Shown here: piece after piece, positions 38,714 through 43,218 of the stretch | How the letters are laid out: each line of letters starts with the position of its first letter | How positions within the stretch are numbered: position 1 is the first letter of the stretch | Virus record (IMG/VR): IMGVR_UViG_3300023174_000037 | Length of the DNA: 64,000 nucleotides | DNA from: a virus | Taxonomy: Duplodnaviria > Caudoviricetes | Direction: 5' to 3' (one strand) | The notes under the pieces: model-generated | Database searches by the model: none | Seen by the model: only the letters and a program-made list of their open reading frames with translations | What the model was told of the DNA's origin: nothing | Made by a program: the position numbers and the translations under genes

Positions 38714-40924
38714 TTAACCTTGTGCGTAGTGTAACATTTTACCACTGCTATCAGCAGTATTTTTGGTTGCTGATTTGATTCTTGCTTGAACATCTACATG
38801 TTCGTGTAACAGAGAAACAATGCGTTTGTTTGTTTTGGCCATTTTTTCAAACATCTGCACAAAATTTCCATTGTTATTATTCAAAGGTATCACTGCTTCA
38901 GTACCGTGTAGTGTTGCAGGATATCCAGATTTTGGACCAGAGAATGCACCGCCTTTTTCAGCCGATACCATATTGTTTCTAAACATGGCTGCTTCTTCTT
39001 GTCTTCGTTTAGTCAACCCGGCTAATTCTTGTCCGCCTGCTTTGTTGTATAAAGGTATAGAGCTGGCTATTTCAGGATTTTTTCGTTTACCGTTGTCAGT
39101 TACCTGTCCAAGCCATCCAGATCCACCATTGAATATAAATGAAGTCAACGCATCAACTTGATTTTGACCCCACTGGTATTTTTTTGATTGTCCAAAGTTG
39201 CCCACTGTTTGTGCTGAAGCATTAACGTATGTGCTGAATCGACTTTCGGCTTCGCTTTGTGAAACAGTTTCTCTTGGTCCTGGATCATTTGGGCCTCCGG
39301 TTGGATACTTGGCTTTGGTACCATAACCGTTGGTCCATTGTTTGTAATCCCAAAATGCAGTTGGTGTAAAACGTTCAGTGGCCTTAATGTAATTTAATAT
39401 GTTAGCCGACGCTGTGGTTGGAACATTACCCGACGGAGCACTGGATTGAGGACCCGGAGGTGCAGCGGCTCCGCTACCACCTGCTGGTGCAGAACTACCA
39501 GGTTCTCTTTTTCCAATGCCAAAAATTCCGCCAGATGAAGCGCCTGGAAGTAATTGACTAGCACGTTCTGCTACGGATCCTACAAATTCAGCAAATTTAG
39601 TCGAGGCCGGCACGGCTATACGAACAAAATCGTCACTGGCTTGTGCAGTCTTAAGCATGTTCTCAGCTATCTTGGCTTGACTCTTGGTAGCACTGTCAAG
39701 CCCTTTTATTTGATTTTTTTGTTCTGTTATTACGGTTGCAGTGTCACCGGTGATGGTTTCAACACCTTGTTTGAATTCTTTTAATGTTCTTAAACTTGGT
39801 CCAAAGCTAACACCAACTTGATTCAGACCCTTGGTTATTTCTATCATTTCAGGACTGATGTTGTCGGCTACTCCTTTTATTGCTTCTGCTGCGGTTCCAC
39901 CATTTTTAAAGAAATCTTTACTAAAGTATTTCATGCTTTCGCCACCGGTGGCTACCAACACGTCAGTGGCACCGGTGATGGCTCCGTTGAAGTTGGCAGC
40001 AAATTCAGCAGCCATTTTTGGACCACCTTTGGCCAATGCTAAGTTGTATGCTTGAAATGCTTGCTCTCTAGCCTTTTCATCTAGATCTTGAAGGCCTGCA
40101 TAGAATGTTTCAATCTGCATGGCCTGCTCACGAGCATCTTCTTGCTCTTTGCGACTCATGCCGGTCATTTTGGTTATTGCATCGAGCTCTTTGAGATACG
40201 CAATTGTGCCATTGGTTAATTCTTTATCTGTTTTTCCACGCAGTCTGCCCAGCGCACCTTCTTGTGCTATGTAGCCAGCTAGCCCTTCATTCATGTCATC
40301 AACAGTAAAACCCATGTTTCTAAACTGTTCTCTGTTTTCAGCAAAGCCAGCAGCGGCGCGACCCATGACTCTGCTGCCTTCAAGAGCACTGCCATAGAAT
40401 TTGCCTAGCGTTTTACTATTGGTAGAAAGAACATTATTCAGTTGACTCAACTGCTCGTCTGTATACCCAAACTGACGCATCTTTTCGTAGACTTCGTTCA
40501 TGGCTTGACCGCCAACCAAGCCAACCTGACTTAACTGTTTGTAAGAATCAAATAGTTTGTTGCTTTGTTTTAGAGCCGCTGTGTTGAGTGCCGCTAGAGC
40601 CTTGGTCATTTCACCAATGATTTTGCCAGCTGGCCCAAATTTGGCTGTGTATGATGCAACGGCTGCAGCTCCACCTTCGACTGTTTTGCTCATGGCCGCA
40701 GTTGCGTCTTGGCCTTTGAGCATGGTTGCGGCCATGTCTTTGGAACTGGTTCCTAATTGTGATAAACTTTGTTTTAGATTGGCAGTGTAGCCTTTTAACC
40801 CGGCTGCATGGTCCATTTGTGCTTCGTTCAGTTGTTTTGCAGAAATATAGCCAGCCTCATACATCTCTTTTTGTTTAGCTAGCCAGGCATCTAGTTCTTT
40901 AAGTGAAGATTCGTCTGCCATCAT
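38714..40924 (-). CDS. Tape-measure-like / hub protein paralogue A with GH24 lysozyme domain
   Basis: Helical Ala/Gly-rich N-terminal ~470 aa; IKATERF...D-x-x-Q-W-T-NGYG...QVDALTSFIFNGG...YNKAGG-x-ELAGLTKRRQEE. Confidence 0.75.
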   Translation of the reverse strand: MMADESSLKELDAWLAKQKEMYEAGYISAKQLNEAQMDHAAGLKGYTANLKQSLSQLGTSSKDMAATMLKGQDATAAMSKTVEGGAAAVASYTAKFGPAGKIIGEMTKALAALNTAALKQSNKLFDSYKQLSQVGLVGGQAMNEVYEKMRQFGYTDEQLSQLNNVLSTNSKTLGKFYGSALEGSRVMGRAAAGFAENREQFRNMGFTVDDMNEGLAGYIAQEGALGRLRGKTDKELTNGTIAYLKELDAITKMTGMSRKEQEDAREQAMQIETFYAGLQDLDEKAREQAFQAYNLALAKGGPKMAAEFAANFNGAITGATDVLVATGGESMKYFSKDFFKNGGTAAEAIKGVADNISPEMIEITKGLNQVGVSFGPSLRTLKEFKQGVETITGDTATVITEQKNQIKGLDSATKSQAKIAENMLKTAQASDDFVRIAVPASTKFAEFVGSVAERASQLLPGASSGGIFGIGKREPGSSAPAGGSGAAAPPGPQSSAPSGNVPTTASANILNYIKATERFTPTAFWDYKQWTNGYGTKAKYPTGGPNDPGPRETVSQSEAESRFSTYVNASAQTVGNFGQSKKYQWGQNQVDALTSFIFNGGSGWLGQVTDNGKRKNPEIASSIPLYNKAGGQELAGLTKRRQEEAAMFRNNMVSAEKGGAFSGPKSGYPATLHGTEAVIPLNNNNGNFVQMFEKMAKTNKRIVSLLHEHVDVQARIKSATKNTADSSGKMLHYAQG

Positions 40925-43218
40925 TAACCTTGTGCGTAGTGTAACATTTTACCACTGTTGTCAGCAGTATTTTTGGTTGCTGACGCAATACTTTCCTGAA
41001 GGTCTAGTGTTTCTTCCAACAACTGAACCATTTGTTCATTTGTTTCGGCCATTTCTTCAAACAGTTTGACAAAATTTCCAGCGCCGTTGTTCAATGGAAT
41101 AACTGCTTCTTCACCGTGTAATGTTGCTGGGTATCCACTGTTAGGGCCAACAGCAACACCACCTTCACTTAATTTAATTTTTCCACCTTCGTGTGATGCA
41201 ACACTAAAGTGCATTGCATCTTTGACCGATGACCAGTTGCCGCCCCATCCCAATCCTAGTTGTTTTGAGATAGCAGAAATATTTTCTGGCATATCAGTAA
41301 TAAGTTGTGCTCCCATTGGGTTGGCTCCAGGATTGATATCAATCGCTCCACCGTGACCATGAACACTTTTTACACCAGGTTTTCCTCTAACGTCTCTGTC
41401 AATATAACCACCCAGGCTGGTAATCTTATAACCCACACCGTCAAGATAGTCAATCAATTGCTGGAATTGCGGAGCATACTCTTTGTTAACCGAAGCACTT
41501 TGTCCTAACTTGCTGGAAACTTTGGTTAACGTAGGAGAGCCAGGTTGGGTACCACCGGCAACAGAGGTACCATGTGGTTCTGGAGCCTGGCTTGTTGGAG
41601 CAGTGCCTGCGGGTGACGCTGGTGCTGATACCGGTGTAGCAGATGGTGCAGTAGCTGGTGCTGTTTGTGGTGGCGCAGCTCCTCCACCACGGGCACCTCC
41701 ACCACCTGCAGGTGCTGATCCTCCACCTGTTGGTGCAGAGGCTGGTGCCGGTCCACCACCTCCACCTCCACCTCCTGCTGGGGCAGCGCCAGTGCCTGGT
41801 TCTCTCTTTCCAAAACCAAAAATTCCACCCGATGACGCTCCAGGAAGCATACGACTAGCATACTCAGCTATATCTGTTGCAAACTTTTGCATCTTGGTTG
41901 ATGTTGGCACCATCATGTTGACAAAGTCTGCTGTCTTTTGTCCAGTCTTGAGTTGATTTTCAGCAATTTTAGCTTGACTTGCTGTGGCACTGTCAATACC
42001 GGCAACTTGATCTTTTTGTTCTTTGGCTACCTTGGTAACGTCAGTAGTAATGGATGCTACACCTTCTTTAAATTCTGTTAACGTTCTTAAGTTTGATCCA
42101 AAGCTACCACCAATTTGATTCAGTCCTTTGGTTACTTCCATTACCGCTGGATCGATTGCACCAGCAACTCCTTTCATTGCGCCTTCAGCAGTGCCGCCGG
42201 CTGCAAAAAACTCTTTGCTAAAATATTTCATGCTTTGGCCGCCAGTGGCCATCATAACATCTGTGCTGCCAGTTATTACTCCGTTAAAGTTGGCAGCAAA
42301 CTCAGCGGCCATCTTGGGGCCACCTTTGGCTAATGCTATGTTATAGGCCTTCATAGCCTGTTCTCTGGCGTTGACGTCTAAGTCCTGGAGTCCAGCATAG
42401 AATGTTTCAATGTTTAGAGCCTGCTCTCGAATGTCCTGTTGCTCTTGGCGGCTCATACCTGTGAGCTTGGTTATTTGATCAAGTTCTTTGAGATACGCAA
42501 TTGTACCTGCTGTTAGCTCTTTGTCAGTTTTTCCTCGTAATTTTCCCATGGCGCCTTCTTGTGCCATGTAACCAGCCATTGCATCATTAAGGTCATCAAC
42601 AGTAAGACCCATAGCTCTAAGTGACTCGCGTTGCTCCGCAAACCCAGCAGATGCACGGCCCATGACTCGACTGCCTTCCAGCGCACTACCATAAAACTTG
42701 CCTAGTGTTTTGCTATTTTCCGTAAGGACTCGATTTAAGTTACCCAATTGATCTTGAGTGTAACCAAACTCACGCATCTTCTCATAAACTTCGTCCATGG
42801 CTTTGCCACCAACTACACCAACTTGACTTAGTTTCTGATATTGCTCAAATAGATCTTTACTTTGTTTTAGTGCTGCTGTATTGAGTGCAGCCATGCCTTT
42901 GGCCAACATTCCCAGTGCTTTGCCTGCTGGGCCAAATTTGGCTGTGTAAGAAGCCACAGCATCAGCACCGGCTTCGACTGTTTTACCAAAAGCTGCACTG
43001 GACTCCTGACCCTTGAGCATGGTTTTGGCTGTTTCCTTGGAACTGGTTCCAAGTTGAGCCATGCTTTGTTTCAAGGTTGCAGTGTAGCCTCGTATGCCGG
43101 CTGCATGGTCCATTTGTGCTTCGTTTAGCTGTTTTGCAGAAATATAGCCAGCCTCATACATTTCTTTTTGTTTAGCTAGCCAGTCATCTAATTCTTTCAG
43201 GGAGTCTTCAGTTGCCAT
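40924..43218 (-). CDS. Tape-measure-like / hub protein paralogue B with M15-family Zn peptidase domain
   Basis: N-terminus highly similar to paralogue A; GGY-x-x-R...S-x-H-x-x-G-x-AIDIN...WGGNW...DAMHF. Confidence 0.75.
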   Translation of the reverse strand: MATEDSLKELDDWLAKQKEMYEAGYISAKQLNEAQMDHAAGIRGYTATLKQSMAQLGTSSKETAKTMLKGQESSAAFGKTVEAGADAVASYTAKFGPAGKALGMLAKGMAALNTAALKQSKDLFEQYQKLSQVGVVGGKAMDEVYEKMREFGYTQDQLGNLNRVLTENSKTLGKFYGSALEGSRVMGRASAGFAEQRESLRAMGLTVDDLNDAMAGYMAQEGAMGKLRGKTDKELTAGTIAYLKELDQITKLTGMSRQEQQDIREQALNIETFYAGLQDLDVNAREQAMKAYNIALAKGGPKMAAEFAANFNGVITGSTDVMMATGGQSMKYFSKEFFAAGGTAEGAMKGVAGAIDPAVMEVTKGLNQIGGSFGSNLRTLTEFKEGVASITTDVTKVAKEQKDQVAGIDSATASQAKIAENQLKTGQKTADFVNMMVPTSTKMQKFATDIAEYASRMLPGASSGGIFGFGKREPGTGAAPAGGGGGGGGPAPASAPTGGGSAPAGGGGARGGGAAPPQTAPATAPSATPVSAPASPAGTAPTSQAPEPHGTSVAGGTQPGSPTLTKVSSKLGQSASVNKEYAPQFQQLIDYLDGVGYKITSLGGYIDRDVRGKPGVKSVHGHGGAIDINPGANPMGAQLITDMPENISAISKQLGLGWGGNWSSVKDAMHFSVASHEGGKIKLSEGGVAVGPNSGYPATLHGEEAVIPLNNGAGNFVKLFEEMAETNEQMVQLLEETLDLQESIASATKNTADNSGKMLHYAQG

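Follow-up and report, generated by a model that had tools for sequence, protein, structure and literature searches.

Peptidoglycan hydrolases embedded in tail tape-measure proteins are already known from the pb2 protein of bacteriophage T5 and from other phages. The tape measures of mycobacteriophages and staphylococcal phages contain embedded Rpf-like or M23 motifs, and phiKZ gp181 and EL gp183 are very long tail-lumen proteins that carry virion-associated peptidoglycan hydrolase domains. The pb2 protein of T5 is a trimer in which a C-terminal metallopeptidase part lies in coiled form at the tip of the tail; triggering leads to the expulsion of this part, which has been proposed to digest peptidoglycan (Boulanger et al. 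2008; Linares et al. 2023, PMC10038345). Here, we describe two adjacent paralogous genes, denoted A and B, in a 64,000-nucleotide (nt) stretch of DNA from a giant T4-type phage from freshwater (IMG/VR record IMGVR_UViG_3300023174_000037); the whole stretch is referred to as the window, and all positions are in its numbering. The products of these genes are probable tape-measure proteins that belong to a large family with an exchangeable slot for a wall hydrolase, and in the window the two copies carry different enzymes.

The proposed architecture of the A/B proteins, a long helical lumen protein with a wall-degrading enzyme near the C-terminus, is that of T5 pb2; no sequence similarity of A or B to pb2 was found. 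T5, however, is a siphovirus with one tape-measure gene, whereas here the tail is contractile and of the T4 type, the enzymatic cassette is exchangeable and the gene is duplicated. The mycobacteriophage and staphylococcal tape measures, phiKZ gp181 and EL gp183 belong to other protein families and, unlike A/B, lack conserved flanks with a freely exchangeable slot between them; the cassette of one distant member of the A/B family matches an EL lysozyme-domain protein. T4 gp29 is likewise encoded in a T4-type tail module, in a cluster divergent from gene 26, and is similar in size (590 vs 736-771 amino acids, aa), but it contains no hydrolase domain and lacks detectable sequence similarity to A and B, so that the comparison is limited to the position and the presumed role. 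In T4, the lysozyme resides on the spike protein gp5, whereas here no lysozyme is detectable in the spike and the enzyme is part of the probable tape measure. The protein annotated as a tape measure in Salicola phage CGphi29 (YP_007673717) shares with A and B its last ~70 residues, which comprise a GGxxxGPxSGYPxxLHGxEAxVPxP motif and a terminal helix, but is a coiled-coil protein of 1418 aa without a recognisable hydrolase cassette and is unrelated over the remainder of its length. Finally, PA5oct gp335 (YP_010678879) and GAP32_244 occupy the same position between a gp26-like gene and the portal gene, have a homologous N-terminal region and are called virion or structural proteins in their records, but both are single-copy and have never been named tape measures. 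Pfam families, including those of hydrolases, do not match PA5oct gp335 at E <= 0.01 or GAP32_244 at E <= 1, and the PA5oct omics paper does not mention a tape measure.

A literature search, which was not exhaustive, found no report of tandem tape-measure paralogues, the matches being concerned with two forms of a chaperone. Four aspects appear to be new. A probable tape-measure role is assigned to a family of T4-distant myoviruses, PA5oct and GAP32 among them, that is very large and has been without annotation; the enzyme slot of this family lies between fixed flanks and has room for at least 10 hydrolase families; tandem duplication has repeatedly given rise to pairs in which one copy bears a peptidase and the other a glycosidase; and these features coincide with a spike in which no lysozyme is detectable.

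Results and discussion

Organization of the gene pair

The two genes are co-oriented on the minus strand and share base 40924, which is common to the stop codon of B and the start codon of A (TAATG). The upstream paralogue B (40924-43218) encodes 764 aa when read from the ATG at 43218, and its longest open reading frame (ORF), 40924-43239, begins at a TTG; the ATG at 43218, rather than the TTG at 43239, is the likely start. The downstream paralogue A (38714-40924) encodes 736 aa. In BLASTP comparisons, the N-terminal 474 residues of the two proteins align without gaps at 73% identity and the last 84 residues are 67% identical, whereas the middle segments are unrelated; the final 60 nt of the genes differ by two mismatches, and both proteins contain the same C-terminal motif and end in ...HYAQG. 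The first-pass annotation of the window had described such a pair, with the TAATG overlap, similar N-termini and near-identical C-termini, and this description is confirmed, with coordinates that were right within a few tens of bases.

In B, the N-terminal all-alpha domain of ~474 aa (41797-43218) is followed by a long Gly/Pro/Ala-rich linker (~41518-41796), an M15/LAS peptidase cassette (41179-41517) and a C-terminal module (40927-41178) that consists of the shared GPxSGYPATLHGxEAVIPL motif and a terminal helix. The equivalent parts of A are an N-terminal all-alpha domain of 474 aa (39503-40924), a GH24 lysozyme cassette (38969-39427) and the C-terminal module (38717-38968). A TAAATA late-promoter-like motif is located just before the ATG of B and another one 7 nt before the ATG of the portal gene (38697), and none precedes A; translation of A is therefore likely to be coupled to that of B on the B transcript.

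The enzymes proposed in the first-pass annotation, a GH24 lysozyme in A and an M15 zinc peptidase in B, are both recovered by Pfam above the gathering scores, with their catalytic residues in place. Residues 516-644 of A (nt 38993-39379) match Phage_lysozyme (PF00959; E 2.6e-14, 54.1 bits against a gathering cut-off of 22.3), and the catalytic Glu, Asp and Thr (E...D...T-x-G-Y-G) align with those of the solved GH24 lysozymes 9kbq and 9kbs. Residues 619-679 of B (nt 41203-41385) match Peptidase_M15_4 (PF13539; E 1.1e-11, 45.6 bits against a cut-off of 25), and the zinc-binding SxHxxGxAxD and DxxH motifs are kept in the alignment with Ply500 (2vo9), the L-alanyl-D-glutamate peptidase of a Listeria phage. 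Judging by these motifs, the GH24 lysozyme of A and the M15/LAS zinc peptidase of B are intact enzymes. Neither Pfam nor the AlphaFold2 (AF2) model indicated an OB or beta-helix region in A and B, so that their architecture is not that of the T4 gp5-type spike lysozyme.

Evidence for a tape-measure function

Several lines of evidence suggest, with reasonable to good confidence, that A and B are tail tape-measure proteins. The C-terminal module of the family (GGxxxGPxSGYxxxLHGxEAVxPL and the terminal helix) matches residues 1332-1397 of the CGphi29 protein of 1418 aa that is annotated as a tape measure (tblastn E 8e-5; hhalign 96.1%, E 3e-9). The N-terminal profile matches the syntenic 798-aa protein gp335 of PA5oct (hhalign 93.5%, E 2e-7), the record of which carries a note on detection by electrospray ionization tandem mass spectrometry (ESI-MS/MS), and, more weakly, the syntenic ‘virion structural protein’ of GAP32 (hhalign 58.8%). 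In a distant family member, a Gly-zipper segment matches proteins of Roseobacter and Pseudoalteromonas phages that are annotated as tape measures. The AF2 model of A, which is of low confidence (pLDDT 52.6), shows helices at residues 8-458 and 688-735 as assigned by DSSP, and the nearest named neighbours in a protein language model are the tape-measure families PF10145, PF20155 and PF06791, which can be taken as a lead only.

The gene neighborhood points in the same direction. Tail assembly chaperone genes with a -1 frameshift normally neighbour the tape-measure gene. On the other side of B and divergent from it lies a gp26-like gene with a 70-aa ORF (43243-44297, plus strand; gp26-like gene, with a T4_baseplate match, at 43243-44082, ORF at 44085-44297), and a -1 slippery heptamer, T_TTT_TTC, is found in the gp26-like gene at 44061-44067, from which the -1 frame enters the 70-aa ORF. 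A gp26-like gene with such a heptamer is, on sequence grounds, the signature of a tail assembly chaperone. The chaperone gene in the window is divergent from A and B and not upstream of them on the same strand; the same divergent orientation is seen in T4 between gene 26 and the 51-27-28-29 cluster. A gp26-like gene, divergently oriented, and the portal gene flank the A/B family in the window, in all 80 IMG/VR loci fetched, in long metagenome contigs, in PA5oct and in GAP32. The label ‘tape-measure-like’ given to the pair in the first-pass annotation is thus supported by the neighbouring frameshifting chaperone gene of the gp26/gp51 type, by the C-terminal homology with CGphi29 and by the virion-protein homologues in PA5oct and GAP32. 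Among the other tail and baseplate genes of the window, no helical tape-measure candidate was found. Two baseplate-region proteins, of 1081 and 703 aa, were considered as tape measures and rejected, being not helical and looking like hub or baseplate proteins. A PF10145 tape measure was not found in the complete genomes of PA5oct, GAP32 and Vibrio phage 2.275.O.

A number of observations weigh against this assignment. The N-terminal domain does not match any tape-measure family of Pfam or PHROG, even at E up to 1, and similarity to T4 gp29 is not detectable (hhalign 0.6%). Only the last ~70 residues are homologous to a named tape-measure protein, and the name of the CGphi29 protein is itself an annotation; moreover, the motif is found mid-protein in an 839-aa protein of cyanophage S-CAM1, so that the module is not strictly terminal. 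The GH24 cassette of A is most similar to podovirus proteins annotated as ‘ejection protein’ or ‘internal virion protein with endolysin domain’, and the genes adjoin head genes (portal, protease, scaffold and capsid) as well as the chaperone gene. The window represents 64 kb of a genome that is probably larger than 140 kb and could have another tape-measure gene elsewhere, and two different tape measures in one tail pose an unsolved problem of stoichiometry. A Foldseek search of the PDB with the A model (pLDDT 52.6) yielded no match at E <= 0.001, and a sequence search of the PDB with the family profile yielded chance coiled-coil matches only. A predicted complex of the gp26-like chaperone with the N-terminal domain of A scored 0.06, which speaks neither for nor against binding.

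Some of these observations would also be compatible with A and B being lysin carriers that are ejected from the tail lumen or associated with the hub, with the length-determining tape measure encoded elsewhere in the part of the genome beyond the window. In addition to the lack of a match to gp29 and to the recognised tape-measure families, the total length of the proteins varies across the family from 670 to 1080 aa, with the N-terminal domain remaining constant at ~470 aa. Against this speak the C-terminal module shared with an annotated tape-measure protein and the adjacent frameshifting chaperone gene, and no other candidate for the tape measure is seen among the tail and baseplate genes of the window or, for the PF10145 type, in the three complete related genomes. 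We consider this explanation unlikely.

An exchangeable slot for wall hydrolases

A search with the N-terminal profile in a library of 1.8 billion proteins retrieved 4671 cluster representatives at E <= 0.001, with clusters defined at 50% identity. Comparison of ~100 close homologues resolved the sequences enclosed by the conserved flanks into nine clusters, which were assigned with Pfam where possible: LAS-type peptidases (VanY, M15_3 or Hedgehog-like; 54 members), an SLT-like type with a weak match (9), a second GH24 type denoted GH24b (8), a cluster of unknown function (8), the GH24 type of A, denoted GH24a (5), the M15_4 type of B (4), the transglycosylase-like PF06737 (2), GH19 (1) and an unknown singleton. 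The survey was extended by applying Pfam to the region after the N-terminal domain in 136 of the best cluster representatives, which recovered VanY in 39, GH19 in 8, GH73 glucosaminidase and PF06737 in 7 each, GH24 in 4, Phage_lysozyme2 in 3, M15_4 in 2, and M15_2, a VgrG3-like C-terminal domain and GH46 in one representative each.

The family can thus be described, from its domain composition, as a fixed carrier with an exchangeable slot that accommodates at least 10 families of peptidoglycan hydrolases between the same flanks. Such a survey of homologues for other cassettes had been suggested in the first-pass annotation, and the presence of a swappable slot, one of the alternatives raised there, is borne out. 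The commonest state in the family, a single gene with a LAS peptidase, is probably ancestral.

Duplication, pairing of enzymes and selection

The 80 IMG/VR loci comprise 77 with a single copy of the gene and three with two copies (L017, L036 and L067). L017 is the same contig as L001 and falls in the clade of close homologues of A and B, whereas the L036 and L067 pairs are distant. In the tree of N-terminal domains, all downstream copies of the close clade form one clade (support 96/97), and the upstream copies together with the single-copy genes form its sister clade (89/93), which indicates one old duplication in the close clade. In a wider tree, each of the pairs is monophyletic (support 100, 99 and 100), so at least three independent duplications have to be assumed.

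The contents of the slots in these pairs follow a pattern. An upstream peptidase is combined with a downstream glycosidase in five of the six paired genomes, which cover two of the three independent duplications; four of these genomes have GH24 as the glycosidase, and L036 has GH19. In the latter, the upstream copy contains a LAS peptidase (E 4e-11 with a hidden Markov model built from the 54 LAS-type cassettes of the family) and the downstream copy a GH19 endolysin-like domain (PDB 9ms6, 4ok7). The sixth pair, in the 92-kb IMG/VR contig L067 (4941-9280), combines a downstream VgrG3-C-like glycosidase (PDB 4noo) with an upstream copy without a recognisable cassette, in which a low-complexity Pro/Thr/Ser-rich linker occupies the cassette position and which may be a natural ‘empty slot’ variant. 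Two peptidase subtypes and three glycosidase types are represented in the peptidase-plus-glycosidase pairs.

Both copies have been maintained for a long time. The synonymous divergence (dS) between A and B is ~1.5, i.e., most synonymous sites differ, which implies that the duplication is old. Between orthologues (the window vs L007, and L001 vs L012), the ratio of nonsynonymous to synonymous divergence (dN/dS) is 0.03-0.13 in all three parts of either copy (N-terminus, cassette and C-terminal module); hence both genes and both enzymes are maintained by selection. Residues identical in A and B are encoded by identical codons in 83% of cases in codons 1-30 and in 92% in the last 14 codons, compared with 54% overall, a pattern compatible with occasional gene conversion or with constraint at the level of nucleic acid. 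Exchange between copies is also apparent from the cassettes: in P0005, a GH24a cassette is combined with a backbone on which GH24b is otherwise found, the single-copy gene P0006 combines an upstream-type N-terminus with the cassette of A (83% identity), and the single-copy genes of the close clade have a mosaic structure, in which the 5' end resembles the upstream copies and the part adjacent to the cassette resembles the downstream copies. Mosaic single copies of this kind would be produced by unequal crossing-over that collapses a pair.

These data bear on the choice between two interpretations that had been proposed for the pair in the first-pass annotation, the delivery of two complementary hydrolases by a heteromeric tape measure or hub and a polymorphic locus that serves host range. 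Under the second of these, A and B would be alternative tape measures, one being used per virion or per host encounter, and their diversity would widen the range of cell walls that can be penetrated. The high exchangeability of the slot, the movement of cassettes between paralogues and lineages (as in P0005, P0006 and the mosaic single copies), the lower synonymous divergence at both gene ends, as would be expected under gene conversion, and the missing cassette in one copy of the L067 pair all agree with such bet-hedging. However, random diversification would not be expected to result in a peptidase and a glycosidase in five of the six paired genomes and in two independent duplications, translational coupling and the lack of a promoter motif for A suggest that both proteins are made together, and both copies are under strong purifying selection. 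The recurrent pairing, which is the chief argument, and the selection on both copies therefore favour complementary delivery over a simple polymorphic locus, and a purely polymorphic host-range locus has, in our estimate, a small probability, although cassettes evidently do move between the paralogues.

Proximity to head genes and authenticity of the tandem

The location of A and B directly upstream of the portal-scaffold-protease-capsid block, together with the similarity of the GH24 cassette of A to podovirus ejection and internal virion proteins, raises the question of whether the pair could encode internal head proteins that reside near the portal and are injected before the DNA, in the manner of podovirus core proteins. 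A short L-x-E near the N-terminus also resembles a T4 prohead-protease site, but it was read by eye and is not conserved in the family consensus. The podovirus similarity is confined to the enzyme cassette, whereas the flanks connect the pair with the C-terminus of a tape measure and with the gene for the tail chaperone; myoviruses, in addition, are not known to need wall hydrolases borne in the head. We regard a role in the head as very unlikely.

The tandem arrangement recurs in the same order in three other separately assembled genomes, the ENA contig L007 (an M15_4 and GH24 pair), the IMG/VR contig L001/L017 and the JGI contig L012, and at least five studies of freshwater and lake metagenomes contain near-identical copies of the stretch. 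An independent run from a lake gave contig depths of 68.8 for A, 67.5 for the 123-nt unitig that spans the B/A junction and 56.1 for B, with 69-76 for the flanking portal and gp26-like genes, whereas two strain variants of one gene would each show about half of the flank depth. Single-copy relatives do exist and the near-identical gene ends could mislead an assembler, but with the same order in four genomes from different data sets, both copies and the junction at about the depth of the single-copy flanks and a divergence of A from B far beyond strain variation, the collapse of strain variants into an artefactual tandem, an error that the first-pass annotation had named as the possible undoing of its interpretation, is ruled out for practical purposes.

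Proposed mechanism and implications

We thus return to A and B as old functional paralogues of the tail tape measure, i.e., putative functional counterparts of T4 gp29. Each consists of four parts: a helical N-terminus of ~470 residues that would fill the lumen of the tail tube, a Gly/Pro-rich linker, one peptidoglycan-hydrolase cassette and a C-terminal module of ~80 residues that would serve for docking at the baseplate end. If the arrangement resembles that of T5 pb2, a trimer would occupy the tube lumen, with the C-terminal module held at the tip; B and A would probably be made from one late transcript through translational coupling. Upon contraction of the sheath, the lysozyme-less spike would pierce the outer membrane and be lost, and the contents of the tube would then leave with the C-terminal end first, so that the cassette would enter the periplasm ahead of the rest of the protein and would open the wall locally, the M15/LAS peptidase of B cutting peptide stems and the GH24 muramidase of A cutting glycan strands. 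The sequence data establish the architecture, the intact catalytic motifs, the tandem arrangement, the purifying selection on both copies, the synteny and the homologies of the two termini; we infer the location in the lumen, the determination of tail length, the expulsion, the activity of the enzymes and the presence of both proteins in one virion.

That the family is a tape measure that releases a wall hydrolase, and that both copies function in virions, we hold to be fairly likely. A bolder version of this scheme holds that the two tape measures are co-assembled as a mixed trimer, which would make the structure a two-enzyme wall-breaching cartridge and the tail the first one built with two different tape measures, and that in this mostly uncultured lineage wall digestion has moved from the spike to the tape measure, with repeated independent duplications into an upstream copy with a peptidase and a downstream copy with a glycosidase; taken jointly, these propositions are tentative and rather doubtful.

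Part of this scheme concerns the spike. The gp5-like central spike of the window (59232-60884, plus strand) gives an OB-domain match only and is otherwise similar to the spikes of contractile injection systems; no lysozyme domain was detectable in it, as the first-pass annotation had maintained. The further suggestion made there, that the lysozyme function of the spike has been relocated to A and B, is consistent with these data, through a link that is correlative only.

If the assignment is correct, the tape-measure gene becomes identified for a huge group of environmental phages, including PA5oct and GAP32, in which the gene product has been a virion protein without an assigned function. The slot would then amount to a catalogue of virion-delivered lysins and a natural guide for domain swaps between phages. 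It would also have to be asked how two distinct tape measures fit into a tail lumen of threefold symmetry and whether both enzymes are required when the spike no longer has a lysozyme.

Neighbouring genes and additional observations

The window covers the structural region of a T4-type myovirus, with genes for the gp20 portal, the gp21 protease, a scaffold-like protein and the gp23 capsid protein, as well as for the gp18 sheath, the gp19 tube, the gp25-like, gp6-like and gp5-like baseplate proteins and the gp26-like hub protein or chaperone. By the capsid protein, the nearest cultured relatives are jumbo phages including PA5oct, Vibrio phage 2.275.O and GAP32, with ~62-66% identity. The downstream neighbour of A is the T4 gp20-type portal gene (36859-38697, minus strand). 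Its longest ORF reaches 38793 and overlaps the end of A, but the portals of relatives start MADNQNTRKPGW, which matches the ATG at 38697, so this ATG is the likely start and the longer start at 38793 is probably not used.

In Vibrio phage 2.275.O (MG592671, L014:2568-6592), two large hypothetical genes, encoding 619 and 707 aa, come after the gp26-like gene on the same strand, in place of one divergent gene; only the 619-aa protein is weakly similar to the A/B family (hhalign 41.5%). Among T4-like cyanophages, Synechococcus phage S-CAM1 (NC_020837, L098:6071-8590) encodes, two genes downstream of gp26, the 839-aa hypothetical protein mentioned above, with a GGIxSGPxSGYxAELHGxExVIPL motif in its middle (hhalign 94%); this protein corresponds to phrog_10925, of unknown function, and may be a cyanophage tape measure or hub protein.

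In the 213-kb relative L004, a homing-endonuclease-like gene of the NUMOD3 type (182 aa, 12097-12645) lies between the tape-measure-like and portal genes, and in L004 and neighbouring loci, GIY-YIG SegE-like and radical-SAM genes vary beyond the gp26-like gene; the locus comprising the gp26-like, tape-measure-like and portal genes is a hotspot for mobile insertions. In the baseplate region of the window, the 703-aa (53568-55679) and 1081-aa (55983-59228) proteins, both encoded on the plus strand, share a near-identical stretch of ~35 residues, DPYYGL..Q..ALG.ADPTDPYIRARLGIPQ, located at about residue 270 of the former and about residue 985 of the latter, and look unrelated in the remainder. 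A freshwater metatranscriptome (X20) contains short contigs identical to the 3' end of A with the start of the portal gene (38665-38913) and to the peptidase cassette of B (41263-41431), which may reflect transcription or carry-over of DNA and are therefore not counted as evidence of expression.

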